Positions 4,373 to 64,000 of a stretch of 64,000 nucleotides of DNA are shown piece by piece. The DNA comes from Escherichia coli (GTDB lineage: Bacteria; Pseudomonadota; Gammaproteobacteria; Enterobacterales; Enterobacteriaceae): the NCBI RefSeq assembly GCF_024502345.1, contig NZ_JALDNN010000001.1; one strand, given 5' to 3'. Position 1 is the stretch's first letter; each line of letters opens with the position of its first letter. The position numbers were made by a program, and so were the translations under genes. The notes under the pieces are model-generated. The model was not told the origin of the DNA. It did not search any database and saw only the letters and a list, made by a program, of their open reading frames with translations.

Positions 4373-4495
4373 GACAGAAAACCAAAACCGGCTCTATCTG
4401 GAGCCGGCTTGAGACTGATGCTAAACGCAAAATAGCCTGTTGTGCTATGTATCAGGTCTACATCATTTTTTAATTCATTGAATTTAATTGGTTTT

Positions 4496-4529
4496 GTAGG
4501 CCGGATAAGGCGTTAACGCCGCATCCGGC
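4496..4529. repeat. REP (repetitive extragenic palindrome) element
   Basis: gtaggccggataaggcgttaacgccgcatccggc, an imperfect palindrome of REP type in the convergent gudD/barA intergenic region. Confidence 0.6.
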
Positions 4530-4603
4530 ATAAACACAGGCACTTTGTCACCAATCTGAAACCAGCGTCATAAAAAGCCGATTGCTACTCGACAAGACGT
4601 CCG

Positions 4604-18832: not shown

Positions 18833-19286
18833 CCATATAACCCGTTATCTCTTTCTCAAGTTTTTATATTAGCAGTACTTGTAATAAGCAACATATCCAC
18901 GTAACACCTCATGTTCAAAATAGTTCTCCATGCCAGAGAGGTTCACAATTATCGATACAAAAAATTAAATTTAATCAAAGTGTTATTTGTATGACTCTTA
19001 AATCGTTAAGAAATTTTAATCTATTATTTTTTTAATATTGAATTAATGCCTGTTAATTTTTTCTTTAGAATAACAGTATATTTTTTAAGCTTGTTATTCA
19101 TTGGTTAAGTAATAAATCTGGAAGTTTGTCTTTGTTTTGAGGCTAATGAGTGGTTTTACATAACCGCCTCTATACGCTGTTGATGAATAGTTCTTATGAA
19201 TAAAGATATCCAGTTCATACTTTAAGTGAAAATTGATAAAGTGCGATTCGTATTGTCTTTAATTCTAAAGACATCGAGTGTAGTTA

Positions 19287-20975: not shown

Positions 20976-22253
20976 TTACTTGCTGCTAGCCATTGCGGGG
21001 GCGCTATCAGCAGTACGAATTTTTTGGAACAGCAAAAAGGTAAAGACAATCACCATGGCAAGCGCCGCCATTCCCATCAGCCACATATTGCGGTAGGCTT
21101 CTGCTGCGGGCAGGGTGTCTTGCCAGTGGCCGATAATCGGGTAAACGAAGACATCCGGCAGGAATCCAATCACCGAACAAATACCTACCGTGGTGCCCAT
21201 AATGTAAGACGGTGTTCTCGCTTCGCCAGGGCAGGCCCAGTACAGCCCGCGTGAGGCGTAACAGGTGAATCCCAGCAGTAAAATCAGGCCAATCCCCATC
21301 GCGACCGATTGCGGGTTAGAGTTCGTGACGAGCAGGGCAGTTAACGCCAGCAGGTCGAGTACGGAAAGGATTTGGATCACGCGGGTAGGGGATTTCACTT
21401 TACTGTAGGTGGTGATAATGCCGCCAAGTGGGCCGCACAGCGCGCGGAAGATTTTGTTGATCACAATCCCCATGTAGCTCGCTGCCACCAGCGACATGCC
21501 GTACATTTCGGTCAGATAGTTGGTGGAGTAACTCAGAATGGCGTAGATTGTGAAGACACCAAAAATCACCATGCTGCAATACCAGGTGGTGCTGATACGC
21601 AAAACGGCAAGGATGTCGCTAAGCTGGAATGACTGTTTTTCTTCGTTATTGGCACTGCGCAGGTTGTTGTTATCGCTAACAAAAAACCAGCACAGAATCC
21701 CCAACAAGATGTAAACCACACTGTAGATGATAATGACTGTTTTCAGGCTGGCGCTGTCATCCGGTGCAAAGCGAGAAAAGACCCACATGGTAAACACCGC
21801 CAGCGACATTACACCGACGCCGCGCAGCCCTTCCATCCAGCCCATAATTTTCCCTTGCTCACTATGATCGCCCAGCAACGAGGCGGCTTTAATCGACACC
21901 GACCACAGCATTAAAATCGTCGTTATCGCAAAGGCGACCTGAATACAGAGCATTACCCACAGCGGTGGATACGTTGCCATTAACAGACCCAGTAATCCGG
22001 TAATGATCATCGCGGAAGTAATCATTTTGCGGTGTGAAAATTTATCGGCAATAACGCCGCTGGGGGCATAAAGAATAATAGCCGCAATACCAAAGGTACT
22101 CATTATTAAACCTATCTCGGTATTGCTGAATCCCATAAATTTCGCCATGGGAATTTGATAAATATAACGTAAATAAGCCAGGTCAAAACTAACGCCGCCG
22201 CTAAAACTAATTATCGCGAGGGTTATCCAACGGCGATATGAGTTGTGTTGCAT
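20976..22253 (-). CDS. yqcE: MFS transporter
   Basis: 425-aa multi-pass hydrophobic ORF. Confidence 0.8.
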   Translation of the reverse strand: MQHNSYRRWITLAIISFSGGVSFDLAYLRYIYQIPMAKFMGFSNTEIGLIMSTFGIAAIILYAPSGVIADKFSHRKMITSAMIITGLLGLLMATYPPLWVMLCIQVAFAITTILMLWSVSIKAASLLGDHSEQGKIMGWMEGLRGVGVMSLAVFTMWVFSRFAPDDSASLKTVIIIYSVVYILLGILCWFFVSDNNNLRSANNEEKQSFQLSDILAVLRISTTWYCSMVIFGVFTIYAILSYSTNYLTEMYGMSLVAASYMGIVINKIFRALCGPLGGIITTYSKVKSPTRVIQILSVLDLLALTALLVTNSNPQSVAMGIGLILLLGFTCYASRGLYWACPGEARTPSYIMGTTVGICSVIGFLPDVFVYPIIGHWQDTLPAAEAYRNMWLMGMAALAMVIVFTFLLFQKIRTADSAPAMASSK

Positions 22254-22431
22254 ATCGTATTCCCATTTGTAATAGAAAAAAAAAAGAGAAAAGTAAGCCG
22301 CCCTTTCAGGTGGATTACTTTTCTCAGGTCTCTAGTAATTGCAATAAGAAATAACATGGAAAGCAGAGGTGTTGTGTGAGAGTAATCACGCTTCTGCTTT
22401 TTAAAACTATTTGACAATACGAATATCACAC

Positions 22432-22447
22432 TGTGATTACGATCACA
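22432..22447. promoter_or_regulatory. CRP-like binding site (TGTGA-N6-TCACA)
   Basis: tgtgattacgatcaca, perfect match to both CRP half-sites, in the yqcE/ygcW divergent intergenic region; a ttgaca hexamer lies at 22411-22416. Confidence 0.5.
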
Positions 22448-22500
22448 TTAGCAGTTATGCCGTTATGCTAAAAATTATCTCCAGTTACCAGAGATAATGA

Positions 22501-22547
22501 GAAAGGTAACTTCCCTCTCGCGGGGGAAGTTACCTTTCTTTTTTTTT
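22501..22547 (+). terminator. intrinsic terminator-like hairpin upstream of ygcW (candidate attenuator)
   Basis: Perfect 15-bp stem gaaaggtaacttccc / gggaagttacctttc, 8-nt loop, then nine T; 24 nt before the ygcW ATG. Confidence 0.6.
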
Positions 22548-22571
22548 GCCTTACGGAAATTGGAGCTAACT

Positions 22572-23357
22572 ATGTCAATCGAATCTCTCAATGCGTTCTC
22601 AATGGATTTTTTCTCACTGAAAGGTAAAACCGCAATTGTTACCGGTGGGAATAGCGGTTTAGGCCAGGCATTTGCCATGGCGTTGGCCAAAGCTGGCGCA
22701 AATATCTTTATTCCTAGTTTCGTCAAAGATAACGGCGAAACAAAGGAAATGATTGAAAAACAGGGTGTTGAGGTGGACTTCATGCAGGTGGATATCACCG
22801 CAGAAGGCGCGCCGCAGAAGATTATCGCTGCTTGCTGTGAGCGTTTCGGTACAGTTGATATTCTGGTAAACAATGCCGGTATTTGTAAGCTGAATAAGGT
22901 GCTGGACTTCGGTCGTGCCGACTGGGATCCGATGATTGATGTGAACCTGACCGCCGCATTCGAGTTAAGCTATGAAGCGGCAAAAATTATGATCCCGCAG
23001 AAAAGCGGCAAAATTATTAATATCTGTTCATTGTTCTCTTACTTAGGTGGACAATGGTCACCTGCATATTCTGCCACTAAACATGCTCTTGCCGGATTCA
23101 CCAAAGCTTATTGTGATGAACTAGGTCAATATAATATTCAGGTAAATGGTATTGCCCCTGGCTATTATGCAACAGATATTACGCTGGCGACACGCAGTAA
23201 TCCAGAAACCAATCAGCGCGTTCTTGATCATATTCCGGCAAACCGTTGGGGCGATACTCAGGATTTAATGGGCGCAGCTGTATTCCTCGCAAGTCCGGCT
23301 TCAAATTATGTCAATGGGCATTTATTAGTGGTCGATGGTGGTTATTTAGTGCGCTAA
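22572..23357 (+). CDS. ygcW: short-chain dehydrogenase/reductase (SDR)
   Basis: Start taken at MSIESLNAF (261 aa); Rossmann TGGNSGLG motif and catalytic YSATK; the track ORF starts upstream at 22497 and would read through the hairpin. Confidence 0.8.
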   Translation: MSIESLNAFSMDFFSLKGKTAIVTGGNSGLGQAFAMALAKAGANIFIPSFVKDNGETKEMIEKQGVEVDFMQVDITAEGAPQKIIAACCERFGTVDILVNNAGICKLNKVLDFGRADWDPMIDVNLTAAFELSYEAAKIMIPQKSGKIINICSLFSYLGGQWSPAYSATKHALAGFTKAYCDELGQYNIQVNGIAPGYYATDITLATRSNPETNQRVLDHIPANRWGDTQDLMGAAVFLASPASNYVNGHLLVVDGGYLVR

Positions 23358-27069: not shown

Positions 27070-27926
27070 ATATCGCAATTGTGACAATAAATCAGGAGAA
27101 TGCCGCATTAGCGGGCTGGCTGGCGGCGCAGGATTTCAGCGGTTGTACCCTGGCGCACTGGCAAATAGAACCACAGCCCGTAGTGGTGGAACAGGTGCTG
27201 GATGCGCTGGTGGAACAGTGGAAGCGAACGCCTACGGACGTTGTTCTCTTTCCGCAGGGAACGTTTGGCGATGAACTGTCGACCCGGCTGGCCTGGCGTT
27301 TACATGGTGCAAGCATCTGCCAGGTGACTTCGTTAGATATTCCAACCGTAAGCGTGCGCAAATCCCACTGGGGAAATGCGCTAACGGCGACGCTGCAAAC
27401 AGAAAAACGCCCGCTATGCCTTTCCCTGGCGCGTCAGGCGGGAGCAGAGAAAAACGCCACGTTGCCCTCTGGTATGCAGCAACTGAACATTGTCCCAGGT
27501 GCGCTTCCCGACTGGCTGGTTAGCATAGAGAATCTGAAAAATGTTAGCCGCGACCCATTAGCTGAAGCCAGACGGGTGCTGGTGGTGGGGCAGGGCGGAG
27601 AGGCAGATAACCAGGAAATCGCTATGCTGGCAGAAAAGCTGGGAGCCGAAGTGGGCTACAGTCGGGCGCGAGTGATGAACGGTGGCGTTGATGCTGAAAA
27701 AGTGATTGGTATTTCCGGACATCTGCTGGCACCTGAGGTGTGTATTGTTGTTGGCGCTTCTGGCGCAGCAGCGTTAATGGCGGGCGTACGCAATAGCAAG
27801 TTTGTGGTGGCGATTAATCATGACGCCAGCGCAGCGGTATTTTCACAGGCAGATGTTGGCGTGGTTGATGACTGGAAAGTGGTGCTGGAGGCACTGGTGA
27901 CAAACATTGACGCAGAATGCCAATAA
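27066..27926 (+). CDS. ygcQ: electron-transfer flavoprotein alpha-subunit-like (FixB-like)
   Basis: 286-aa ORF (start at MNIAIVTINQ), overlapping the ygcR stop. Confidence 0.75.
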   Translation: MNIAIVTINQENAALAGWLAAQDFSGCTLAHWQIEPQPVVVEQVLDALVEQWKRTPTDVVLFPQGTFGDELSTRLAWRLHGASICQVTSLDIPTVSVRKSHWGNALTATLQTEKRPLCLSLARQAGAEKNATLPSGMQQLNIVPGALPDWLVSIENLKNVSRDPLAEARRVLVVGQGGEADNQEIAMLAEKLGAEVGYSRARVMNGGVDAEKVIGISGHLLAPEVCIVVGASGAAALMAGVRNSKFVVAINHDASAAVFSQADVGVVDDWKVVLEALVTNIDAECQ

Positions 27927-27970
27927 CGTGCTGCCGGATGATCCTGCCTACGGTTCTGGACTGGGGACCT

Positions 27971-28007
27971 GTAGGCCTGATAAGACGCGTTAAGCGTCGC
28001 ATCAGGC
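27971..28007. repeat. REP element
   Basis: gtaggcctgataagacgcgttaagcgtcgcatcaggc between convergent ygcQ and ygcP. Confidence 0.7.
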
Positions 28008-28072
28008 GCTGAAGGTCGGATGTGGCATGCAGCCTACAAATCACACAAATTCAATTCGTTACGATTATCCCG

Positions 28073-28648
28073 TCAAAGCAATTTTTTAGCTAACGTCCAG
28101 ACTCCGGTATTCGTGGTGGAAAGCGCCACGACACCCGCGTTAATCGCATTACGCGCATTTTCTTCATCGCATACCAGCCCGCCAGCAATCAGCGGTTGAC
28201 GGATTTTCTCCGTCACCCAGCCCAGCACTTTGGGCATACAGCCAGGCAGGATCTCAATACAATCCGGATTCGATTGCGCAACTTGCTTATCAATGTTGTG
28301 AAACGAAATTGAATCAACAATAAACAGGCGATGAATACAGAAAAAACCTTCCGCTCTTGCCGCTTTCAGCATTGAGGCTTTGGTACTGATAATTCCGTCC
28401 GCCTCGGTCACCAGTTTCAAAAACTGAATCACGACTTCTTTATTTGACGCGCCTTCCAGCAAATCAACATGAATAAAAGCATATTTCCCGGCGTTCTTAA
28501 TCTTTTTAACGATATTACTGATGGTGCAGATATTGCCGTACAACACGGAAATAAACTGGCATTCAGAGTCGATTGCCAGTTGCAGGCTGGCATTATCTTT
28601 AACGGCAGCAATCACCGGATTCTGGCGGAGCAGGTGTAAGAGGGGCAT
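28073..28648 (-). CDS. ygcP: GlpP-like glycerol-3-phosphate-responsive antiterminator family protein
   Basis: 191-aa ORF; family assignment from recalled similarity, not computed. Confidence 0.7.
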   Translation of the reverse strand: MPLLHLLRQNPVIAAVKDNASLQLAIDSECQFISVLYGNICTISNIVKKIKNAGKYAFIHVDLLEGASNKEVVIQFLKLVTEADGIISTKASMLKAARAEGFFCIHRLFIVDSISFHNIDKQVAQSNPDCIEILPGCMPKVLGWVTEKIRQPLIAGGLVCDEENARNAINAGVVALSTTNTGVWTLAKKLL

Positions 28649-32745: not shown

Positions 32746-34457
32746 TGAGCGAAAAACATCCAGGGCCTTTAGTGGTCGAAGGAAAACTGACAGACGCCGA
32801 GCGCATGAAGCTTGAAAGCAACTACCTGCGCGGCACCATTGCGGAAGATTTAAACGACGGTCTGACCGGCGGCTTTAAGGGCGACAACTTCCTGCTGATC
32901 CGCTTCCACGGCATGTATCAGCAGGATGACCGCGACATCCGCGCCGAACGTGCTGAACAGAAGCTGGAGCCGCGCCACGCGATGCTGTTGCGCTGCCGTC
33001 TGCCGGGTGGGGTGATTACCACTAAACAGTGGCAGGCGATCGACAAATTTGCCGGTGAAAACACCATCTATGGCAGCATTCGCCTGACCAACCGCCAGAC
33101 GTTTCAGTTCCACGGCATTCTGAAAAAGAACGTCAAACCGGTGCACCAGATGCTGCACTCGGTCGGTCTTGATGCGCTGGCGACCGCTAACGACATGAAC
33201 CGTAACGTACTCTGCACCTCGAACCCTTACGAGTCGCAGCTACACGCGGAAGCGTATGAATGGGCGAAGAAAATCTCTGAACATCTGCTGCCGCGTACCC
33301 GCGCGTATGCGGAGATCTGGCTCGATCAGGAAAAAGTCGCCACCACCGATGAAGAACCGATCCTCGGCCAGACCTACCTGCCGCGTAAATTCAAAACCAC
33401 GGTAGTGATCCCGCCACAGAACGATATCGATCTGCACGCCAACGACATGAACTTCGTGGCAATCGCCGAAAACGGCAAGCTGGTGGGCTTTAACCTGCTG
33501 GTGGGCGGTGGGCTTTCCATCGAACACGGCAACAAGAAAACCTACGCCCGCACCGCGAGTGAGTTTGGCTATCTGCCGCTGGAGCATACGCTGGCAGTGG
33601 CGGAAGCCGTCGTGACAACTCAGCGTGACTGGGGTAACCGAACCGATCGTAAAAATGCCAAAACCAAATACACGCTGGAGCGCGTGGGGGTTGAGACGTT
33701 TAAAGCGGAAGTGGAGCGTCGCGCGGGGATCAAATTCGAGCCGATTCGCCCGTATGAGTTTACCGGACGCGGAGATCGTATTGGCTGGGTTAAGGGCATT
33801 GATGATAACTGGCACCTGACGCTGTTTATCGAAAATGGTCGCATCCTTGATTATCCGGGGCGTCCGCTGAAAACCGGCCTGCTGGAGATCGCGAAGATCC
33901 ACAAAGGCGATTTCCGCATTACGGCGAACCAGAATCTGATCATCGCCGGTGTGCCGGAAAGCGAGAAAGCGAAGATCGAGAAGATCGCTAAAGAGAGCGG
34001 GTTAATGAATGCCGTCACGCCGCAGCGTGAAAACTCAATGGCCTGCGTGTCATTCCCGACTTGCCCGCTGGCGATGGCGGAAGCGGAGCGTTTCCTGCCG
34101 TCTTTTATCGACAACATCGATAATTTAATGGCGAAACATGGTGTCAGCGATGAGCATATCGTGATGCGTGTAACAGGCTGCCCGAACGGTTGTGGTCGCG
34201 CGATGCTGGCGGAAGTGGGCCTGGTGGGTAAAGCGCCGGGTCGCTACAACCTGCATCTTGGCGGCAACCGTATTGGGACACGTATCCCACGGATGTATAA
34301 AGAAAACATCACCGAGCCGGAAATCCTGGCGTCGCTTGATGAACTGATAGGGCGCTGGGCGAAAGAGCGCGAAGCGGGTGAAGGCTTCGGCGACTTTACG
34401 GTGCGTGCGGGCATCATTCGCCCGGTGCTCGATCCGGCGCGCGATTTGTGGGATTAA
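32745..34457 (+). CDS. cysI: sulfite reductase [NADPH] hemoprotein beta component
   Basis: 570-aa ORF with siroheme/4Fe-4S cysteine motifs (CVSFPTC, TGCPNGC). Confidence 0.95.
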
Positions 34458-34472
34458 CCATCAGCCCGGTCT

Positions 34473-34509
34473 TGTAGGCCTGATAAGACGCGTGAGCGTC
34501 GCATCAGGC
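34473..34509. repeat. REP element
   Basis: gtaggcctgataagacgcgtgagcgtcgcatcaggc between cysI and cysH. Confidence 0.7.
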
Positions 34510-34530
34510 AAGGCAAACAGTGAGGAATCT

Positions 34531-35265
34531 ATGTCCAAACTCGATCTAAACGCCCTGAACGAACTGCCGAAGGTAGATCGCATTCTGGCGCTGGCGGAAA
34601 CTAACGCCCAACTGGAAAAACTGGACGCTGAAGGCCGCGTAGCTTGGGCGCTGGATAATCTGCCCGGTGAATATGTACTTTCTTCCAGCTTTGGCATTCA
34701 GGCGGCGGTGAGCCTGCATCTGGTGAATCAAATTCGCCCGGATATTCCGGTGATCCTCACCGATACCGGTTACTTGTTCCCGGAAACCTACCGCTTTATT
34801 GACGAGTTAACGGACAAACTCAAGCTCAACCTGAAAGTGTACCGTGCTACCGAAAGCGCAGCCTGGCAGGAAGCACGCTACGGAAAACTGTGGGAACAGG
34901 GCGTTGAAGGCATTGAAAAGTACAATGACATCAACAAAGTCGAACCGATGAACCGGGCGCTGAAAGAACTTAACGCGCAAACGTGGTTTGCTGGCCTGCG
35001 CCGTGAACAATCCGGCAGCCGCGCCAATTTACCGGTGCTGGCAATTCAGCGTGGCGTATTTAAAGTGCTGCCGATTATCGACTGGGATAACCGAACGATA
35101 TATCAGTATCTGCAAAAGCATGGCCTGAAATATCACCCATTATGGGACGAAGGATATTTATCGGTGGGCGATACCCATACAACCCGTAAATGGGAACCCG
35201 GCATGGCGGAAGAAGAAACGCGTTTCTTTGGCTTAAAAAGGGAATGTGGGTTACACGAAGGGTAA
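34531..35265 (+). CDS. cysH: phosphoadenosine phosphosulfate (PAPS) reductase
   Basis: Start at [14 protein letters not shown] (244 aa); C-terminal ECGLH motif. Confidence 0.93.
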
Positions 35266-35281
35266 ATATTGTCGGATAAAT

Positions 35282-35320
35282 TAAACGCCTCTGTCAGAAA
35301 TGATGGGGGCGTTTTTATTT
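35282..35320 (+). terminator. rho-independent terminator after cysH
   Basis: aaacgcc ... ggcgttt stem followed by ttttatttt. Confidence 0.55.
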
Positions 35321-35528
35321 TGCGAGCAGCATTCCTGATTTTAAACGTGAACGCCGCTGGAAGAATTATCAGGTATAGAATGGCGTCGGGTGCTTGAGGC
35401 TGTCTGGCGTTAAGCATTCGCGAGGTTCCAGATGGACAAAAGCCCCAGGCGATATTTCTATCAACCTGAGGCTCGCGTTCGAACGTAGCAATTCGAATGT
35501 TAGTCTCTTCTTTGCAGGGAGGCAAGAC

Positions 35529-35681
35529 ATGCTGACAAAATATGCCCTTGTGGCAATCATAGTGCTGTGTTTTACAGTACTGGGATTCACGCTGATGGTA
35601 GGCGACTCGTTGTGTGAGTTGAGTATCAGAGAACGTGGTATGGAGTTTAAGGCTGTTCTCGCTTACGAATCGAAGAAGTAG
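35529..35681 (+). CDS. hokX: Hok/Gef-family type I toxin (small membrane peptide)
   Basis: 50-aa [53 protein letters not shown]: single TM helix plus the family C-terminal pattern SLCEL-IR--G-E--A-LAYES; the symbol is my recollection for this position. Confidence 0.7.
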
Positions 35682-35687
35682 CCACCA

Positions 35688-35716
35688 CGCGGGGGTAAAA
35701 CCCCGCGTATTGAATT
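35688..35716 (+). terminator. hairpin terminator after the hok-like ORF
   Basis: cgcgggg-gtaaaa-ccccgcg stem-loop followed by tattgaatt. Confidence 0.5.
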
Positions 35717-35870
35717 GTGATGGTTTGGTCTCCTGCACCCTTTTTTAAATTTATATTTTTTATGTGAATATATTGTCTCTATTTATTATTATGAATTTCA
35801 AATGAAAATCATAAATTTATTCACAATATAAATGTTTTATTGGCTGATATATATCACAGATAATTTTTAA

Positions 35871-38135
<2,265 letters not shown>

Positions 38136-38231
38136 GTTAGACGTTCTTTAAAAATAAGGAAATGTTTTAATTTAGTTGGTAGATTGTTGATGCGGAATAA
38201 ATTTGTTTAAAAACAGTTATGTATGCTTAGT

Positions 38232-38443
38232 GTGTTCCCCGCGCCAGCGGGGATAAACCGGGGCCGACGGTCGCAGTATTGGACCATTTCAAGTGTTCCC
38301 CGCGCCAGCGGGGATAAACCGACTCTTACATGCTTAATCAGATTCTGGCGGATGTGTTCCCCGCGCCAGCGGGGATAAACCGGGCGCACTGGATGCGATG
38401 ATGGATATCACTTAGAATTCCCCGCCCCTGCGGTAGAACTCCC
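38232..38443 (+). CRISPR. short type I-E CRISPR array: 3 intact repeats, 3 spacers and a degenerate terminal repeat
   Basis: GTGTTCCCCGCGCCAGCGGGGATAAACCG at 38232, 38293, 38354; 32-bp spacers; degenerate repeat gaattccccgcccctgcggtagaactccc at 38415-38443; truncated leader 38136-38231. Confidence 0.92.
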
Positions 38444-38463
38444 AGCTCCCATTTTCAAACCCA

Positions 38464-39501
38464 TCAAGACGCCTTCGCCAGCTCCTTCACCAACGGTAGC
38501 ATTATCCGCATAACGTCACGGCAGCGACGTTCTATTCTTCCAGGAAGTGCCTTATCAATATGCTGTTGATTATCCAGTCTTACGTCATGCCAGCTATTTC
38601 CCGCAGGGAATGCGGCTGTTTTTGCGCGTTGCTGATAACCATCCTTATTCCCAAGATTCCAGTTAGTCGCTTCCACCGAAAGTACAGCAATGCCCGCTTT
38701 GTCGAATATTTCTGCGTCATTACAACACCCAGTGCCTTTCGGATAATTTTTATTCAGACTCGGATTGGTCGTTGCGGCTATTCCGTGACTGCGCGCAATT
38801 GCCAGCGCCCTGTCGCGCGTTAATTTCCTTACTGATTCAGGGGTTTTTACACCGCTGTTGAAATACAATTTATCGCCAACAATTAAGTTATCGAGATTAA
38901 TCACCAGCAGCGTATTTTTCTTTTCGGTGTCACTCATCCGCTTGAGTAAATTCTCAGCGCCTAATTTCCCTTCCTCTTCGCCGCTGGTCGCCACAAATCG
39001 AATACCATACTCGGTAGGCGTATTTTTCAGGCGTTCTGCCAGTTCCAGCATGACACCTAAACCTGCGGCGTTATCATCCATTCCTTGTAACGTCAGCCCG
39101 CCGAGATTGGCATCGGCGTCAGCATCGCTCAGCGGGGCGTAAGTATCCAGATGCGCCATAATGATGATCTGCTGCGGCGCTTTGCCTTCATGAGCGGCAA
39201 TCACCGTACTTCCCGTCACGTTATGCCAGCTCTTACGATTATCGCGGGCGGTATAAATATACCGACTATTAAATGTCCGAATATCACTGCGATAACCCAT
39301 TTGCTGAAACTGTTGGCGAATATAATCGGCAGATAACATTTCTGCAGGAGTTCCGGTCATGCGTCCCGGAAAGAAAGTAGCAATATGTCGTGCCTGAGTA
39401 TTAGCAAAATCGCCAGGTTTAGGTGACGAGGCGTGTACGGGGAGAATAAAGCATACGCCGAGCGCCAGGGCAGCGGTACGGTGGCGCAATGCGGAAAACA
39501 T
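38464..39501 (-). CDS. iap: alkaline phosphatase isozyme conversion aminopeptidase
   Basis: 345-aa ORF with signal peptide and M28-type metallopeptidase features; position next to the array and cysD. Confidence 0.88.
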   Translation of the reverse strand: MFSALRHRTAALALGVCFILPVHASSPKPGDFANTQARHIATFFPGRMTGTPAEMLSADYIRQQFQQMGYRSDIRTFNSRYIYTARDNRKSWHNVTGSTVIAAHEGKAPQQIIIMAHLDTYAPLSDADADANLGGLTLQGMDDNAAGLGVMLELAERLKNTPTEYGIRFVATSGEEEGKLGAENLLKRMSDTEKKNTLLVINLDNLIVGDKLYFNSGVKTPESVRKLTRDRALAIARSHGIAATTNPSLNKNYPKGTGCCNDAEIFDKAGIAVLSVEATNWNLGNKDGYQQRAKTAAFPAGNSWHDVRLDNQQHIDKALPGRIERRCRDVMRIMLPLVKELAKAS

Positions 39502-39752
39502 AGTGAGTCCTTAAATACCATGCAAATTTTTTTACCGCCATAGTATGAAACTGCCGCTGCGCTAAAACAATTTCAAATCTTCCTAAACGCCCGAAATCCG
39601 GTGCCTTAAGCACTTTTTGATATTAGCTTTGCCAAATCGTTATTCCGTTAAGGAACTACTCATTCTAATTGGTAATTTCATTCGTTCTCTTACGCTCCCT
39701 ATAGTCGAAACATCTGATGGCAAGAAAATAGCGGTATTGCAAAGGAACGGTT

Positions 39753-40661
39753 ATGGATCAAAAACGACTTACTCACCTGCGGCAACTGGAGGCGGAAAGC
39801 ATCCACATTATTCGCGAGGTGGCGGCAGAATTCTCAAATCCGGTGATGCTCTACTCTATCGGTAAAGATTCCAGCGTCATGCTGCATCTGGCGCGCAAGG
39901 CGTTTTATCCAGGTACGCTGCCTTTCCCGTTGCTGCATGTTGATACCGGCTGGAAATTCCGCGAGATGTATGAGTTCCGCGATCGTACGGCTAAAGCCTA
40001 CGGCTGCGAGTTGCTGGTGCATAAAAACCCGGAAGGCGTGGCGATGGGGATTAATCCATTCGTGCACGGCAGCGCGAAACATACCGATATTATGAAGACC
40101 GAAGGCCTGAAGCAGGCGCTGAATAAATACGGTTTTGATGCCGCCTTCGGTGGTGCGCGCCGCGACGAAGAGAAATCCCGTGCTAAAGAGCGTATCTACT
40201 CTTTCCGTGATCGCTTCCATCGCTGGGACCCGAAAAATCAGCGCCCGGAGCTGTGGCACAACTATAACGGGCAGATTAACAAAGGCGAAAGCATCCGCGT
40301 TTTCCCGCTCTCTAACTGGACCGAGCAGGATATCTGGCAATACATCTGGCTGGAAAATATCGACATTGTGCCGCTGTATCTCGCTGCGGAACGTCCGGTT
40401 CTGGAACGCGACGGTATGTTGATGATGATTGATGACAACCGTATCGACCTGCAACCGGGCGAAGTGATCAAAAAACGGATGGTGCGTTTCCGTACGCTGG
40501 GCTGCTGGCCGCTGACCGGTGCGGTGGAGTCAAATGCACAAACACTGCCGGAAATCATTGAAGAGATGCTGGTTTCCACCACCAGTGAACGTCAGGGCCG
40601 CGTGATTGACCGCGACCAGGCGGGATCCATGGAGCTGAAAAAACGTCAGGGGTATTTTTAA
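39753..40661 (+). CDS. cysD: sulfate adenylyltransferase subunit 2
   Basis: 302-aa ORF, PAPS-reductase-like fold ([12 protein letters not shown]). Confidence 0.95.
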
Positions 40662-49538: not shown

Positions 49539-49575
49539 AAAGGCCAGTCTCAAGCGAGGCTGGCCTTTTTTCTTT
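49539..49575 (+). terminator. rho-independent terminator of rpoS
   Basis: aaaggccagtctc-aagc-gaggctggccttt hairpin followed by a T-run. Confidence 0.8.
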
Positions 49576-49643
49576 TGTTTGGGAAGCATGTGTTTTTGTC
49601 GCCTGGATAAGACACGTCAGCCTCCTACCCGGCAATCAGCATT

Positions 49644-50084
49644 CTATGTGCTCATCATCTTGCGCACCAACTGCATAAACAGCTCCTGCTCTTCTACACT
49701 CAAACGCCCCAAAAATTCCTCATCCACGCGGTCACCAATCGGTATCGCCGCAGCAAGTATCTTTTCTCCTTCGGCAGTCAGCCAGACAAAGCGTCGCCGC
49801 TTATCAGCGGCGTCATGTTCACGTCTGACTAAGCCACGATTTTCCATTCTTGCCAACATTTCTGCCAGCGTTGCTTTGGTGCTGACTGCTGCTTCTATCA
49901 GTGCCACCTGTTCGATACCAGGCTTATCAGCAATGGCACGCATCACCGCATACTGTGGTTTGGTCAGGTCAGGTAACTCGTGCTGCCAGCGAGCCGTGTG
50001 CTGCTGAAAAAGCTGTCGTAACTGATGGAACGCTTTATTTCGTAACGCCATGTAAACTCCGGGCAAACTATCTGCCGCTATCAT
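49644..50084 (-). CDS. MarR/SlyA-family transcriptional regulator
   Basis: 146-aa ORF with winged-helix region typical of MarR proteins; divergent from the UbiX-like gene. Confidence 0.75.
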   Translation of the reverse strand: MIAADSLPGVYMALRNKAFHQLRQLFQQHTARWQHELPDLTKPQYAVMRAIADKPGIEQVALIEAAVSTKATLAEMLARMENRGLVRREHDAADKRRRFVWLTAEGEKILAAAIPIGDRVDEEFLGRLSVEEQELFMQLVRKMMST

Positions 50085-50166
50085 AACGGTTTTTCAGTGA
50101 CGAAGGGGATGTTGTTACTTTTCAGTGCTTGCCGCAATGAGAACAGAGGCGTATTTTAATAATAAC

Positions 50167-50180
50167 GTTCGTATACGAAC
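50167..50180. promoter_or_regulatory. perfect 14-bp palindrome, candidate MarR-type operator
   Basis: gttcgtatacgaac, 18 bp upstream of the UbiX-like start codon. Confidence 0.45.
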
Positions 50181-50197
50181 AATTAAGAGAGTAAGCA

Positions 50198-50791
50198 ATG
50201 AAACTGATCGTCGGGATGACAGGGGCTACCGGTGCGCCTCTTGGTGTGGCATTACTGCAAGCGCTGCGGGAGATGCCGAATGTCGAGACTCATCTGGTGA
50301 TGTCGAAGTGGGCGAAAACCACCATTGAACTGGAAACGCCTTACAGCGCCCGCGATGTTGCTGCCCTCGCTGACTTCAGCCATAACCCGGCGGATCAGGC
50401 GGCGACCATCTCCTCAGGTTCCTTTCGTACCGACGGCATGATCGTTATTCCGTGCAGTATGAAAACGCTCGCCGGTATCCGCGCTGGTTACGCTGATGGC
50501 CTGGTAGGGCGCGCGGCGGACGTCGTGCTCAAAGAAGGCCGCAAACTGGTGCTGGTGCCGCGTGAAATGCCGCTTAGCACCATCCATCTCGAAAATATGC
50601 TCGCACTTTCACGCATGGGCGTGGCGATGGTGCCGCCGATGCCTGCCTTTTATAACCATCCCGAAACGGTAGATGACATTGTCCACCATGTAGTAGCCCG
50701 CGTGCTGGATCAATTTGGCCTCGAACATCCCCACGCCAGGCGCTGGCAAGGATTGCCGCAGGCCGGGAATTTTTCTCAGGAGAATGAATAA
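50198..50791 (+). CDS. UbiX-like flavin prenyltransferase (decarboxylase subunit B)
   Basis: 197-aa ORF, MKLIVGMTGATGAPLG start, flavoprotein fold. Confidence 0.85.
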   Translation: MKLIVGMTGATGAPLGVALLQALREMPNVETHLVMSKWAKTTIELETPYSARDVAALADFSHNPADQAATISSGSFRTDGMIVIPCSMKTLAGIRAGYADGLVGRAADVVLKEGRKLVLVPREMPLSTIHLENMLALSRMGVAMVPPMPAFYNHPETVDDIVHHVVARVLDQFGLEHPHARRWQGLPQAGNFSQENE

Positions 50792-52217
50792 TGGCATTTG
50801 ATGATTTACGCAGCTTTTTACAGGCGCTTGATGACCACGGCCAGTTACTGAAAATCAGCGAAGAGGTGAACGCGGAACCGGATCTGGCTGCCGCTGCCAA
50901 CGCCACCGGGCGTATCGGCGATGGTGCACCGGCGCTGTGGTTTGATAATATTCGCGGTTTTACCGATGCCCGCGTGGCGATGAATACCATCGGTTCCTGG
51001 CAGAACCACGCGATTTCCCTCGGCCTGCCGCCAAACACTCCGGTCAAAAAGCAGATTGATGAGTTTATCCGCCGCTGGGATAACTTCCCGATTGCCCCGG
51101 AGCGCCGCGCCAATCCTGCCTGGGCGCAGAACACCGTTGATAGCGACGAGATTAACCTGTTCGATATCCTGCCGCTGTTTCGTTTAAACGATGGCGATGG
51201 CGGTTTCTATCTCGACAAAGCGTGCGTGGTTTCCCGCGATCCGCTCGACCCAGATAACTTCGGCAAGCAGAACGTCGGCATCTACCGCATGGAAGTGAAG
51301 GGCAAGCGTAAGCTCGGCCTGCAACCGGTGCCGATGCACGATATCGCCCTGCATCTGCATAAAGCAGAAGAGCGCGGTGAAGATCTGCCGATTGCGATCA
51401 CGCTCGGTAACGATCCGATCATCACGCTGATGGGGGCCACGCCGCTGAAATACGATCAGTCTGAGTATGAAATGGCAGGCGCGCTGCGTGAAAGCCCGTA
51501 CCCGATCGCCACCGCCCCGCTGACCGGTTTTGATGTGCCGTGGGGTTCAGAAGTGATCCTCGAAGGGGTCATCAAAAGCCGTAAACGCGAAATCGAGGGG
51601 CCGTTCGGTGAGTTTACCGGGCACTACTCCGGCGGGCGTAACATGACCGTGGTGCGTATCGATAAAGTCTCTTACCGCACCAGGCCGATTTTCGAATCGC
51701 TGTACCTCGGCATGCCGTGGACCGAAATCGACTACCTGATGGGGCCAGCCACCTGCGTACCGCTGTATCAACAACTGAAAGCCGAGTTCCCGGAAGTGCA
51801 GGCGGTAAACGCCATGTACACCCACGGCCTGCTGGCGATTATCTCCACCAAAAAACGCTACGGCGGCTTTGCCCGCGGGTGGGCCTGCGTGCGATGACCA
51901 CGCCGCACGGTCTGGGCTACGTAAAGATGGTGATTATGGTCGATGAAGACGTTGACCCGTTCAACCTGCCGCAGGTGATGTGGGCGCTCTCCTCGAAAGT
52001 GAACCCGGCAGGGGATTTGGTGCAGTTGCCGAATATGTCCGTGCTGGAACTCGACCCAGGCTCAAGCCCGGCAGGGATCACCGACAAGCTGATTATCGAC
52101 GCCACCACGCCTGTTGCCCCGGACAACCGTGGTCACTACAGCCAGCCGGTGGTGGATTTGCCGGAAACCAAAGCCTGGGCTGAAAAACTGACCACTATGC
52201 TGGCTGCACGTAAATAA
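50791..52217 (+). pseudogene. UbiD-family decarboxylase (subunit C) interrupted by a frameshift near 51874-51879
   Basis: Two overlapping track ORFs (50791-51897 and 51717-52217) in different frames together span about 475 codons; the frame switches between GGFAR and VGLRAMTTPHGLGYVKM. Confidence 0.7.
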
Positions 52218-52227
52218 GGAGAACAAG

Positions 52228-52464
52228 ATGATTTGTCCACGTTGTGCCGATGAACAGATTGAAGTGATGGTGAAATCGCCGGTGAAAGATGTCTGGACGG
52301 TATATCAGTGCCAGCATTGCCTTTATACCTGGCGCGATACCGAACCGCTACGCCGCACCAGTCGCGAACATTACCCGGAAGCGTTCCGCATGACGCAGAA
52401 AGATATTGATGATGCGCCAATGGTGCCGAGCATCCCGCCGCTGCTGGCGGAAGGTAAGCGCTAA
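52228..52464 (+). CDS. small zinc-ribbon protein (decarboxylase subunit D-like)
   Basis: 78-aa ORF with CPRC ... CQHC pairs; third gene of the UbiX/UbiD-like operon. Confidence 0.7.
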   Translation: MICPRCADEQIEVMVKSPVKDVWTVYQCQHCLYTWRDTEPLRRTSREHYPEAFRMTQKDIDDAPMVPSIPPLLAEGKR

Positions 52465-58566: not shown

Positions 58567-59210
58567 TAAAATGACAGCCGCCCGCTTTTCGGCGTGCCGG
58601 TATCAATATAAATCTGGTTAGCGAACGTCTGAATGTTATCAAACATCATATGTCCAAATATAAAATAATCAGCGCCGTTTATTTGTTGTAACTCGCCATT
58701 AAGCGATTTCTGCACACGATCAACAGGCCAGAGTAATTCGCTCTCCGCTATTTCTTTACCAAAGAGATATTCACTCCCCGGATAATCTGCATGTGCGATG
58801 ACATATTTTATGTTGTCGTTAGTGATTTCAATAATATGTGGAAGGTGATGGAATTTCAGCAACAGATCTGTAGCTTCTTTTTGCTCTGAATCATTTAAAT
58901 CGAAAAACCAGTCACCACCGCTGGCAAGCCACATATTGCCATCGCCGGTCGCGAACGCATCCAGCGCCATTGCTTCGTGGTTGCCTTTAACGGAGATAAA
59001 CCAGGGCTGGTTTAGCAGGCGCAGGACGTCAAGACTCTCCGGCCCACGATCAATATTATCGCCGACAGAAATAAGTAAGTCGGTTTCAGGGCAAAAAGAG
59101 AGTTGATGTAAGCGGGATTGTAATAATTGATATTCACCATGAATATCACCAACGACCCATATATGGCGATAGTGATGGGCATTAATTTTTTGATAGCGTG
59201 TAGATGGCAT
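58554..59210 (-). CDS. pphB: serine/threonine protein phosphatase 2
   Basis: 218-aa ORF with metallophosphatase motifs GDIHG, GDNIDRG, GNHE. Confidence 0.9.
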   Translation of the reverse strand: MPSTRYQKINAHHYRHIWVVGDIHGEYQLLQSRLHQLSFCPETDLLISVGDNIDRGPESLDVLRLLNQPWFISVKGNHEAMALDAFATGDGNMWLASGGDWFFDLNDSEQKEATDLLLKFHHLPHIIEITNDNIKYVIAHADYPGSEYLFGKEIAESELLWPVDRVQKSLNGELQQINGADYFIFGHMMFDNIQTFANQIYIDTGTPKSGRLSFYKIK

Positions 59211-59315
59211 GGTTTTACCCTGTAAAATAAGCTTTCCTATTATACAGGGTGTTTTTATTTTATTCGTCAGTTGTCGTTAATATTCCCGATAGCAAAAGAC
59301 TATCGGGAATTGTTA

Positions 59316-61877
59316 TTACACCAGGCTCTTCAAGCGATAAATCCATTCCAGCGCCTGACGCGGAGTCAGTGAATCCGGGTCCAGGTTTTCCAGAGCTTCG
59401 ACCGCTGGCGAGGTTTCTTCCGGTACTGACAGCAAAGACATTTGCGTACCATCCACTTGCGTAGCGGCGGCGTTCGGCGAAATGCTTTCCAGCTCACGCA
59501 GTTTTTGCCGTGCGCGCTTAATCACCTCTTTTGGCACGCCTGCCAGAGCTGCAACCGCCAGGCCGTAGCTTTTGCTCGCCGCGCCATCCTGCACGCTATG
59601 CATAAAGGCAATGGTGTCTCCGTGCTCCAGCGCATCGAGATGCACGTTGGCGACGCCTTCCATTTTTTCCGGTAACTGGGTCAGCTCGAAATAGTGGGTA
59701 GCAAACAGCGTCAATGCCTTAATCTTATTCGCCAGATTTTCTGCGCACGCCCACGCCAGCGACAGACCATCGTAAGTGGACGTTCCACGCCCGATCTCAT
59801 CCATCAATACCAGACTGTACTCGGTGGCGTTATGTAAAATATTGGCGGTTTCGGTCATCTCCACCATAAAGGTTGAGCGCCCGGACGCCAGGTCATCTGC
59901 CGCGCCTACGCGGGTAAAGATGCGATCGATAGGTCCAATCTCGACTTTTTGTGCCGGTACATAGCTGCCGATGTAGGCCATCAGCGCAATCAGTGCGGTC
60001 TGGCGCATATAGGTACTTTTACCGCCCATGTTCGGACCGGTGATGATCAACATGCGGCGCTGCGGCGACAGATTCAGCGGGTTGGCGATAAATGGCTCAT
60101 TCAGTACTTGTTCAACTACCGGATGGCGACCTTCGGTAATGCGAATGCCCGGTTTATCAATGAAGGTCGGGCAGGTGTAGTTCAGGGTATAGGCCCGTTC
60201 CGCCAGGTTCACCAGCACGTCGAGTTCCGCCAGCGCGCTCGCGCTCTGTTGCAACGCTTCCAGATGCGGCAACAGCAGGTCGAACAACTCTTCATAAAGC
60301 TGTTTTTCCAGTGCCAGTGCTTTGCCTTTTGAGGTGAGAACTTTATCTTCGTACTCTTTTAGCTCTGGAATGATGTAGCGCTCGGCGTTTTTCAGCGTCT
60401 GGCGACGCATGTAGTTGATGGGTGCCAGATGGCTTTGCCCACGGCTGATTTGAATGTAGTAGCCGTGCACCGCATTAAAGCCAACTTTCAGCGTGTCCAG
60501 GCCGGTACGTTCACGCTCGCGGACTTCCAGACGCTCCAGATAATCGGTCGCGCCGTCAGCCAGCGCGCGCCACTCATCCAGCTCTTCGTTATAGCCCGAT
60601 GCGATAACACCACCGTCGCGTACCAGCACCGGCGGTGTGTCGATGATTGCTCGCTCCAGCAGATCGCGCAGCTCGGCAAACTCGCCCATCTTCTCACGTA
60701 GCGCCTGTACCGGTGCACTATCGACAGTTTCTAACTGCGCACGCAGCTCCGGCAGTTGCTGGAAAGCGTGGCTCATACGGGCCAGATCGCGTGGGCGAGC
60801 AGTTCGTAAAGCCAGACGTGCCAGAATACGTTCCAGGTCGCCGACCTGACGCAGTACCGGCTGTAGCCCGGCGGTGAAATCCTGCAATGCGCCAATAGTT
60901 TGCTGGCGCTCAAGCAACACGCGGGTATCGCGCACTGGCATATGCAGCCAGCGTTTCAGCATACGGCTGCCCATCGGCGTGACGGTGCAGTCGAGCACAG
61001 AAGCCAGCGTATTTTCCGCACCACTCGCCAGGTTCTGGGTGATTTCCAGATTACGACGCGTCGCGGCATCCATAATGATGCTGTCCTGCTCACGTTCCAT
61101 GGTGATGGAACGAATATGCGGCAGAGTCGTACGTTGGGTATCTTTCGCATACTGCAACAGACAACCGGCAGCACAAAGTCCGCGCGGCGCGTTCTCGACG
61201 CCAAAACCGACCAGATCGCGAGTGCCAAATTGTAGATTCAACTGCTGGCGCGCGGTGTCGATTTCAAACTCCCACAGCGGGCGACGGCGCAGGCCGCGAC
61301 GGCCTTCAATTAACGACATTTCAGCAAAATCTTCTGCATACAGCAGTTCCGCAGGATTAGTGCGTTGCAGTTCTGCCGCCATCGTTTCCCGGTCAGCCGG
61401 TTCGCTCAGGCGAAAACGACCGGAACTGATATCCAGCGTCGCGTAGCCGAAACCTTTGCTGTCCTGCCAGATAGCCGCCAGCAGGTTGTCCTGACGCTCC
61501 TGCAACAGGGCTTCATCGCTGATGGTGCCTGGCGTAACGATACGCACAACTTTGCGCTCAACCGGACCTTTGCTGGTCGCCGGATCGCCAATTTGTTCGC
61601 AGATGGCAACGGACTCGCCCTGATTCACCAGTTTGGCGAGGTAGTTTTCCACCGCATGGTAGGGAATCCCCGCCATCGGGATCGGCTCTCCCGCCGAAGC
61701 ACCGCGTTTGGTCAGTGAAATATCCAGCAGTTGCGACGCGCGTTTTGCGTCGTCATAAAACAGTTCATAAAAATCACCCATCCGGTAAAACAGCAGGATC
61801 TCGGGATGCTGGGCTTTCAGCTTGAGATACTGCTGCATCATGGGGGTGTGCGAGTCTAAATTTTCTATTATACTCAT
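59316..61877 (-). CDS. mutS: DNA mismatch repair protein MutS
   Basis: 853-aa ORF with Walker [10 protein letters not shown] and MutS domains. Confidence 0.97.
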
Positions 61878-62073
61878 CGGCTTGTGATGTCCATTCTCTT
61901 AATTTTTAATGAGTTAGTGGTTTTTATGGTTATCATTATGTTTCACGTTGTCTCATCGAATATCATGAAATCCTACATTTAAATGTAGGTTAAAGTGTAG
62001 CTTGCCAACCTATAGCTTGGTAAAATATGGGCACATACAGCACAACCTATATTTATGTTCATGACTGCATAAG

Positions 62074-63375
62074 GTGCATGATAACGGAGTCTTTATGGCA
62101 GGAAAACAAGAGGGAAAGCCACTTTCGTTTAAAGGGGTAGAAATGATGAAGCCAGGCGATAAAGATAAGGCTGATGTAGGCGAAAATCGTGGCTTACGTG
62201 TCTCCTGTGGTGCAACTGGTGTTAAGTCTTTTTTCTACCGTTACACAAGTCCTCTGACTGGCAAACTTGCTCAGGTTAAAATTGGTAACTTCCCGCAGAC
62301 TTCTCTCGCCGCTGCACGTCTTAAACTTCATGAATTAAAGCTCCTCCGGCAGGAAGGTCGGTGCCCTGCGTCAGAGCTTAAGCAAGATAAGCTCCAGCGT
62401 GCGATTGAAGCTGAACAGGCTAAGATCCCTGAATTGACCGTACAGGGATTAGTTGAACTGTATCTTACTGAACGTATTGAGGATCGTAAAACGAAGGACG
62501 GGAAGGTCATTCCCGGTGCCAGAAAACCGAAAGGACAGGCTGAGGTTCGTCGTACTCTCTATGGTGACGCTGTTAAAAGTTTAGGAACCCGGAATGCTGC
62601 TGAGATAACGCGCCAGGATGTTATTAATTTAATCAATGGCATTGTAGCTCGGGGCGCAACCGTACAGGCAGGGAATGTACTGAGAGAACTTTCACTCGCA
62701 TATGAATTTGCAATTGGACTTGGGCGCTTTGATGACAGTTTTGCGAATCCAGCGCTGTTAGCAAAATCTAGCTTACGACAGACCAGAATCAAGCTCACAA
62801 ATGGACGTGGAACACGAGTACTGAGTGAGGACGAGCTTGCAAAATTCCTTAAATGGCTACCGGGTTCGGCTTACACGCCAACGATCAAAAACGTGTTACG
62901 TCTGACTCTCTGGACCGGGTGTCGTACCGGTGAAGTCTGCAATATGGCATGGAAGGATGTTGATCTTGAAAAAGGCACCATTCATCTTAGAGAAACCAAG
63001 ACTGGAGTAGAGCGTTACGTTCAGTTATCGGATCAAGCGATCGACTTTCTCAAGGTTCTACGCCTTACCTCTGACAAATATCTATTCCCTTCACAAGCCA
63101 CTAAAAAGCCAATCCAGCAGAAGTATCTAACTGAAAACTCATGGCGTTTACGTGAAAGCGGTCAAATGCTTGATATACCTCATTGGACGCCGCATGATCT
63201 GCGTCGTACAGTACGAACGGGCTTATCTCGTTTGCAGTGTCCAAATGAGGTGGCTGAGGCCGTATTGGGGCATACACGAGGCGGTGTTGAAGGGATTTAT
63301 AATCTGTATAAGTATGATGCTGAGTGTAGGAAGTGGTTGCAGGTGTGGGCGGATTATTTAGATACTTTAACGTAA
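62074..63375 (+). CDS. int: tyrosine-type site-specific integrase (P4-like)
   Basis: N-terminal arm-binding pattern KPGDKDK...GLRV...RY; C-terminal catalytic HDLRRT and LGHTRGGVEGIYNLY; the true start may be a downstream Met. Confidence 0.85.
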   Translation: MHDNGVFMAGKQEGKPLSFKGVEMMKPGDKDKADVGENRGLRVSCGATGVKSFFYRYTSPLTGKLAQVKIGNFPQTSLAAARLKLHELKLLRQEGRCPASELKQDKLQRAIEAEQAKIPELTVQGLVELYLTERIEDRKTKDGKVIPGARKPKGQAEVRRTLYGDAVKSLGTRNAAEITRQDVINLINGIVARGATVQAGNVLRELSLAYEFAIGLGRFDDSFANPALLAKSSLRQTRIKLTNGRGTRVLSEDELAKFLKWLPGSAYTPTIKNVLRLTLWTGCRTGEVCNMAWKDVDLEKGTIHLRETKTGVERYVQLSDQAIDFLKVLRLTSDKYLFPSQATKKPIQQKYLTENSWRLRESGQMLDIPHWTPHDLRRTVRTGLSRLQCPNEVAEAVLGHTRGGVEGIYNLYKYDAECRKWLQVWADYLDTLT

Positions 63376-63445
63376 TTTGCCAATTAGATGTCCAATCATT
63401 TCGTTACATCAAAGTTGTGCTTAATTTTTATTTTATAAGGATAAT

Positions 63446-64000
63446 ATGGATATTTTTTCTGGAGAATCAATTCTTTCCCAAGTCCCTGATGTCAATCATT
63501 GGTTAGCTTCTTACGGCTTGAATTCAACTACATCAAGATATAGCAGATATATCTCTTATATTGATGCTTTTTTTGAGTCGAAAGATCCCACCTCATCTGA
63601 TGGAAGAGACAAATTTGATTTATTAACCAAGTCGTATGCAGAAATTATAGAAATAGTCAGCGTTAAAAAAGCGTTTGAACATGAAAGAAGCCCCGGATTT
63701 ATTGAGCGTTTAAGTAAGGTTGTTTCTGGAGTTGATCATGTTGGTATTAAAGAACCCAGTGAGCCAAGGAATTTTCTCTACGAATTACTTATGGCTGCCC
63801 GGCTAAAAAATGCTGGCTTTATTATTGATTTTGACCAAGGAACTGATGTTGTCGCATATGGATTTGGTCGTGCTATTTTCGTTGAATGTAAACGCACAAC
63901 ATCAATAAGAGGGTTCGAATCTAATTTCATTAAAGGTGGAAAGCAATTAGAGAGAAAGTTTAAGAGTACGAAACTTCCCCATTTTATGATTCGGGGATTT
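63446..64000 (+). CDS. hypothetical protein, 5' portion only (runs off the window)
   Basis: Open frame from ATG 63446 to the window end (185 codons, no stop), AT-rich; contains a D-x13-E-C-K stretch reminiscent of PD-(D/E)xK nucleases. Confidence 0.45.
   Translation, partial: MDIFSGESILSQVPDVNHWLASYGLNSTTSRYSRYISYIDAFFESKDPTSSDGRDKFDLLTKSYAEIIEIVSVKKAFEHERSPGFIERLSKVVSGVDHVGIKEPSEPRNFLYELLMAARLKNAGFIIDFDQGTDVVAYGFGRAIFVECKRTTSIRGFESNFIKGGKQLERKFKSTKLPHFMIRGF

Follow-up and report, generated by a model that had tools for sequence, protein, structure and literature searches.

SXT/R391 elements, which are self-transmissible ICEs residing in prfC, and the elements with dusA-specific integrases each have their attachment site in the 5' coding region of the target gene, whose 5' end and promoter are restored by the incoming element and which remains functional as a result. 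For mutS, Chu et al. 2017 (mBio 8:e02045-16, PMC5296598) identified hundreds of Beta- and Gammaproteobacteria with mobile elements integrated within the MutS motif HTPMMQQ, among them Vibrio splendidus 12B01, E. coli 536, Pseudomonas putida F1 and Burkholderia multivorans CF2. In that work the element gives mutS a promoter and a translation start, the host's own start is left orphaned at the far end, and horizontal transfer of the elements was reported. Excision was detected by PCR in E. coli 536, where it is scar-free; in V. splendidus 12B01 it leaves a 2-bp scar that leads to hypermutators. Mageeney et al. 2020 list four integrase clades that target mutS and suggested that the gene is inactivated. 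A related case is provided by the SpyCI islands (PMC3430984), which sit at mutL of Streptococcus pyogenes and block its expression, giving a mutator. Finally, mutS|ygbA is defence hotspot #8 of E. coli in Hochhauser et al. 2023 (PLoS Genet 19:e1010694), where 27 of 1,322 genomes are occupied; the variable cargo includes Qat, a retron, AbiP2, a type I RM system and Her_DUF. That study defines its sites by flanking core genes, and its main text never names mutS, ygbA or fhlA.

Here we evaluated the end of a 64,000-nucleotide stretch of E. coli DNA (the window), where an integrase gene lies beside mutS. The integrase-led island in mutS is a further example of the mechanism published by Chu et al. 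2017, with which it has in common the insertion in HTPMMQQ, a divergent integrase less than 300 bp from mutS, the supplied promoter and start, the orphaned host start, signs of horizontal spread and a homologous integrase, which shares 63% identity with the full-length form of the E. coli 536 integrase. It is set apart from E. coli 536 by another integrase subclade and a different cargo; there was also no sign here of the 2-bp excision scar of V. splendidus 12B01. In contrast to SXT/R391 and the dusA elements, the target gene and the integrase family are others and no conjugation genes were recognised. Like SpyCI, the island stands at the start of a mismatch-repair gene, but the target ORF is intact here. 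It agrees with hotspot #8 in flanking genes, low occupancy and defence cargo, although Septu, which we found in a matching island, is not among the hotspot #8 rows in the available portion of Hochhauser et al. 2023. The integration site and mode are settled, and the answer was already in the literature. Three aspects possibly go beyond the published description, namely the replacement of the Hfq/ArcZ control region of mutS, a putative orphaned promoter that faces a fic gene, and a candidate orphan nuclease.

An attachment core inside mutS

The sequence-only reading of this DNA had pointed to a 433-codon ORF directly beside mutS, interpreted as a P4-like tyrosine integrase, and had placed the edge of an insertion just beyond the mutS promoter region. 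The ORF is present and the insertion is real, but its edge falls inside mutS. The features of the locus are as follows.

59316-61877, minus strand: mutS, an intact ORF of 853 aa (ORF list)
59316-61833, minus strand: portion of mutS that is of host origin, starting within codon 15 and running through the stop codon (differences from strain ET490 extend to 61822)
61834-61844, unstranded: attL crossover core TGCATCATGGG, 11 bp (junction alignments and double occurrence in the ET490 locus)
61845-61877, minus strand: island-supplied surrogate mutS codons 1-11 (different from K-12; native copy at attR)
61878-62094, unstranded: divergent control region, island DNA, G+C 35%, with the putative surrogate mutS leader/promoter (minus) and integrase promoter/RBS (plus)
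61984-61994, plus strand: candidate arm-type integrase site TGTAGGTTAAA, an 11-mer repeated in both island arms
62074-63375, plus strand: ORF of 433 codons from GTG, divergent from mutS and directly after it
62095-63375, plus strand: tyrosine integrase, 426 aa from ATG, member of the clade that targets mutS (Pfam domains; PHROGs integrase)
63447-64000, plus strand: first cargo gene, the 5' part of a 294-aa ORF cut by the window end and full length in identical islands

The boundary was located by a three-way alignment of the left junction of ET490, its right junction and the empty site of K-12, in which TGCATCATGGG is common to attL, attR and the empty site. This core is the reverse complement of CCC ATG ATG CA, which are MutS codons P12-M13-M14-Q15. 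The insertion point falls in the HTPMMQQ-coding motif, with the core CCCATGATGCA covering P12-M13-M14-Q15, and the island edge lies 33-43 nt into the mutS coding sequence. At attL, normal mutS is found to the left of the core, and the sequence to its right is only ~80% similar to the K-12 mutS start. At attR in ET490 the core is followed by mutS sequence identical to that of K-12, comprising the first 11 codons, the leader and the promoter/upstream region, beside ygbA. This orphaned native start reads ATGAGTGCAATAGAAAATTTCGACGCCCATACGCCCATGATGCA. Native MutS codons 1-11 encode MSAIENFDAHT, and codons 1-11 of the window differ from them. Given that a surrogate start stands at attL and the native start at attR, mutS codons 1-11 belong to the island, as does all the DNA upstream, including the "mutS promoter region" beside the ORF that had been read as backbone. 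Within the 42-kb ET490 locus TGCATCATGGG occurs twice and no more, at a spacing of 19,694 bp (chance expectation 0.04); the second copy, beside ygbA, supplies the other boundary and the direct repeat for which the earlier reading had proposed a search.

Comparison of the window with ET490 leads to the same border. There are 61 differences in 58743-61822 and none in 61823-64000, in two backbones that diverge by ~1% and differ in addition by a 2.9-kb indel. Since the differences end near the core and the backbones are diverged, the two genomes carry the same island in different backbones, and this island begins at the core. It takes up 61834-64000 of the window (2.2 kb), and its far end is deduced from genomes that match over those 2.2 kb. 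In K-12 a 286-bp spacer separates mutS from ygbA; in ET490 the island, with the integrase as its first gene, reaches almost to ygbA.

Two further observations concern the backbone. The sole difference from ET490 close to the junction, at 61822, is 12 nt outside the core and changes MutS codon 19, which is K in the window and R in both ET490 and K-12; OW1E2, E. coli 536 and several other carrier genera likewise have K. It could be an ordinary polymorphism or the trace of an exchange extending past the core. The 2.9-kb segment lies between rpoS and ygbN, at ~49569-52464 of the window, and both ET490 and MB06233 lack it. Genomes that match it are annotated there with a MarR regulator and hydroxyarylic acid decarboxylase subunits B, C and D, and the segment belongs to the known polymorphic mutS-rpoS region.

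The picture implicit in the sequence-only reading was an island in the mutS-ygbA intergenic region that leaves mutS and its promoter untouched. The position of the integrase, 196-217 bp past the mutS start codon, would suit such an insertion, as would a BLAST genome comparison that seems to run ~50 bp beyond that codon. This extension, however, falls on the mutS start imitated by the island, which has ~80% identity to the native start; moreover, the native start is duplicated at attR and the ET490 differences stop inside mutS. The attL/attR/empty-site alignment refutes an intergenic insertion, to which we assign practically no probability. The window from 61834 to 64000 is instead very probably the left end of an integrative island that enters the 5' end of mutS and supplies a replacement start.

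These data allow us to propose a mechanism for integration. Site-specific recombination would take place at a short core, the ATG-ATG-CA of the conserved HTPMMQQ motif in mutS, and the recombining enzyme would be the adjacent 426-aa tyrosine integrase with its arm-binding domain. The attachment site of the island carries an imitation of the mutS start that comprises a putative promoter, a leader and 11 codons, and the host promoter, leader and first 11 codons are displaced to the far end, next to ygbA. As the island brings its own mutS start, mutS is read from island DNA after integration, at full length. The use of the HTPMMQQ-coding stretch of mutS as target also explains the lack of a tRNA target. 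In agreement with the earlier reading, which saw neither a tRNA nor a tmRNA gene, ARAGORN detected none in the window, and an Rfam scan of 58-64 kb returned nothing relevant.

Integration might alternatively inactivate mutS and excision restore it, so that the element would work as a reversible mutator switch. The attB site does fall within coding DNA, ahead of the part that encodes the MutS Pfam domains, and the V. splendidus element controls mutation rate, though by way of the 2-bp excision scar. Against this, the 853-aa mutS ORF is intact with an in-frame, island-supplied start, complete in-frame MutS N-termini are present in 20 of 20 related loci, RefSeq flags no mutS pseudogene in any E. 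coli carrier examined, and Chu et al. 2017 concluded for E. coli 536 that mutS keeps its frame in either state. A switch of this kind is therefore very improbable, and the intact mutS ORFs argue against inactivation as suggested by Mageeney et al. 2020 for this clade. The criterion of regulated gene integrity is disruption of the target gene in the integrated state, in which mutS is full length here. A replacement start that keeps mutS in frame remains the reading we favour. Outside E. coli, mutS of Lonsdalea britannica (locus 3230-5783), beside a 98%-identical integrase, aligns in three pieces that imply two frame changes; it is either a pseudogene or the product of draft-assembly errors.

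For annotation, the consequence is that the boundary of islands at mutS|ygbA should be drawn at the ATGATGCA core within mutS. Carriers have a mutS whose promoter, leader and N-terminus are of foreign origin, which matters for work on mutS regulation, allele phylogeny and mutation rates.

The integrase clade and its distribution

The ORF beside mutS has three Pfam matches, Arm-DNA-bind_3 (6e-11), Phage_int_M (7e-6) and Phage_integrase (1.4e-24), and it contains both HDLRRT and LGHTRGGVEGIYNLY, the motifs quoted in the sequence-only reading, which had also seen an arm-type N-terminus. It is full length, with every catalytic motif present. Of the two possible starts, the ATG at 62095 (426 aa) is more likely than the GTG at 62074: it is preceded by GGAG, identical copies in RefSeq start there too, and alignments with relatives from other genera begin at residue 1 or 2 of the 426-aa version. 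Depending on the start, the divergent gene lies 196 bp (GTG) or 217 bp (ATG) from mutS, and the 196-bp spacer is as AT-rich as first described, with a G+C content of 34% against 51% for the whole window.

The island is rare. An integrase of this clade stands next to mutS in 13 of 5,426 complete E. coli genomes, and 5,417 of the 5,426 match the query only over the mutS end, which bears out the expectation that the insertion is absent from K-12-type genomes. The whole 2.3 kb is found at 99.9-100% identity in four complete E. coli genomes; nine further genomes have an integrase 81-96% identical adjoining mutS, followed by different DNA. E. coli MB06233, OW1E2 and KL53 have the same attR with a K-12-identical mutS start, and their attL shares 8 bp, TGCATCAT, the portion of the core common to all relatives.

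The geometry of the locus is conserved well beyond E. coli. When one genome per species was scanned, integrases 62-98% identical were found in some 25 genomes, mostly Enterobacterales, with near-identical forms (97-98%) in Klebsiella, Lonsdalea and another Enterobacterales genome. Twenty other loci had enough flank to be compared, mostly from Enterobacterales of many genera together with one unclassified Proteobacteria genome. In all 20, mutS is divergent from the integrase at a distance of ~217 bp and the ACTGCTGCATCAT core is invariant; the surrogate N-termini vary, and all run in frame into HTP|MMQQY. Two Met codons and the CA of a Gln codon stay fixed as long as M-M-Q is kept, and this offers a plausible reason for the broad host range.

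A second integrase clade occupies the same site in ~30 listed genomes, E. coli 536, F11 and K-15KW01 among them, with a surrogate leader 75% identical; these ~30 genomes are without the window's integrase despite the leader match. In E. coli 536, attL and attR surround the same core 14.8 kb apart and the integrase is truncated. The full-length form of this clade is found in STEC434, where it is 63% identical to the integrase of the window and 99% identical to the 536 fragment. In 536 itself the integrase of the mutS element (locus 18319-19068) is annotated as a 249-aa fragment that lacks the catalytic domain. Excision was nevertheless detected by PCR (Chu et al. 2017), which suggests that a recombinase acts in trans or that strain stocks differ.

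The 249-aa truncation in 536, an IS3-associated deletion in OW1E2, and in ET490 a cbtA pseudogene in an island with no recognised transfer genes all raise the question of whether the element is a fixed, decayed and immobile remnant whose integrase is a fossil. We consider this unlikely. In the window the integrase retains its full length and all catalytic motifs, and the 2.2 kb are identical to the ET490 island despite the ~1% divergence of the backbones. In addition, the ET490 island carries an AlpA-type excisionase-like gene, and integrases 97-98% identical recur in the Klebsiella, Lonsdalea and other Enterobacterales genomes mentioned above. These data support an integrative island whose integrase is probably active and which may still be mobile.

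Possible effects on the control of mutS and of the fic gene

The island-borne control region between mutS and the integrase is ~70% similar to the native mutS leader over ~75 nt and unrelated further out. No consensus sigma-70 promoter above threshold was detected in it, a relaxed scan giving only weak 8-of-12 matches, nor was there a consensus promoter above threshold in the attR region; the promoter positions considered here are thus putative. The same region holds the 11-mer TGTAGGTTAAA, of which the ET490 locus has two exact copies, one ~150 bp in from attL and the other ~70 bp in from attR. With one mismatch allowed it is present at the same attL offset in 22 of 24 related loci. All four E. 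coli islands examined at their right end have a copy ~70 bp in from attR. From their position and recurrence, we suggest these copies as candidate arm-type sites, to which the arm-binding domain of the integrase would bind in both arms.

Chen & Gottesman 2017 mapped all control of MutS by Hfq and ArcZ to the 74-nt leader and the first 10 codons, where they placed ARN1 (-50 to -42), the ArcZ site (-26 to -15) and ARN3 (+9 to +17). In their study the Hfq (AAN)3 and ArcZ sites lower stationary-phase MutS and permit stress-induced mutagenesis. It is exactly this control segment that the island replaces. At ARN1 the surrogate leader of the window reads CATAAAAAC in place of AATAAAAAC and contains no perfect (AAN)3, and ARN3 is kept. 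The predicted ArcZ duplex amounts to -17.9 kcal/mol for the native leader versus -9.2 kcal/mol for the surrogate; both were computed locally, over -40 to +6, a long-sequence calculation having given unrealistic looped structures. With both ARN1 and the ArcZ duplex weakened, carriers may keep MutS high under stress. The ARN1, ARN3 and ArcZ-duplex features differ among other islands.

At the opposite end, the last gene of the island encodes a Fic/DOC protein (ET490 locus 39043-39660, minus strand; attR core 39829-39839). In all four E. coli islands of the clade this gene begins 168-169 bp away from the core, in the orientation of the putative orphaned mutS promoter, and no terminator-like site was found on that strand between the orphaned mutS leader and the Fic/DOC gene in the four islands. 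Because the orphaned promoter would aim at fic with no terminator in between, expression of fic could depend on integration and follow mutS-type control. Integration might rewire two controls in this way, relieving the stress repression of mutS and making fic expression integration-dependent, a possibility that we put forward only tentatively.

Cargo of the island

The cargo was read in ET490, whose island matches the 2.2 kb of the window; in such strains the island is ~19.7 kb long. The sequence-only reading had supposed that an integrase-led island of this kind might bring defence genes, and PADLOC on the ET490 island identified Septu (PtuA 715 bits, PtuB 331 bits) and matched the Fic protein to the candidate PDC-S04. 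A type I methylase and a specificity subunit, directly followed by PtuA/PtuB, occupy 33028-38704 of the ET490 locus, the restriction subunit being absent. KL53 has hsdM, hsdS, the gene for a DUF5655 protein and hsdR in this slot. What directly follows the integrase varies from island to island. The island thus serves to carry defence genes, among them an uncharacterised family of candidate nucleases considered below.

The backbone of the ET490 island comprises an HTH repressor, RadC, DUF2787, the cbtA pseudogene, DUF905, a second Xer-like recombinase, AlpA and several proteins that were placed in no functional family. Two of these, of 364 aa and 494 aa, follow AlpA, and Pfam, NCBIfam and PHROGs gave them no functional assignment. 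The second recombinase, a tyrosine recombinase of 315 aa (ET490 locus 27681-28628), is conserved mid-island in three further loci and is followed by a divergent small gene and then AlpA. It could mark a nested or tandem element or have another role; two tandem elements were considered, and no third copy of the core was found in the 42-kb ET490 locus.

This gene content also bears on the description of the integrase as P4-like. The domain architecture fits: Arm-DNA-bind_3 (DUF4102) is paired with a catalytic tyrosine-recombinase domain, and an arm-binding domain is typical of P4-like integrases. The rest of the label did not hold, as identity to phage and plasmid integrases reaches ~30% at most, no P4 satellite genes were recognised and its target is neither a tRNA nor a tmRNA gene. 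The genes for AlpA, RadC, a YeeU/CbtA-like protein and DUF905 resemble those of CP4-type cryptic elements and, with the arm-binding domain, could suggest that the whole island is a P4-type phage satellite or a prophage. Searches of phage and plasmid collections, however, returned no integrase above ~30% identity (best phage 30.5%) and gave no clue to a helper or vector. PHROGs, NCBIfam and Pfam recognised no capsid and no P4 hallmark (alpha primase-helicase, sid, psu, delta, cos) among the ET490 island proteins, a search that remote homologues could escape. The S2 rows for hotspot #8 in the available portion of Hochhauser et al. 2023 likewise list IME, GInt or none, and neither satellites nor prophages. 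We give a satellite or prophage origin very little credence and retain that of an integrative island in mutS.

The first cargo gene encodes the 294-aa protein that is cut by the window end and found at full length at 21747-22631 of the ET490 locus. It had no match in four profile libraries (Pfam, PADLOC, NCBIfam and PHROGs) and only 22 matching clusters in a database of 5.8 billion proteins. Among its homologues E113, D134 and E147-x-K149 are invariant, which forms an E...D...ExK signature, and its structural model (pLDDT 88.5) has a restriction-endonuclease-like fold. Together the signature and the predicted fold make the protein a candidate orphan nuclease of the PD-(D/E)xK type. V. cholerae has homologues, and those in Firmicutes stand upstream of vanG-like operons or, in C. 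difficile, beside ArdA within a conjugative element.
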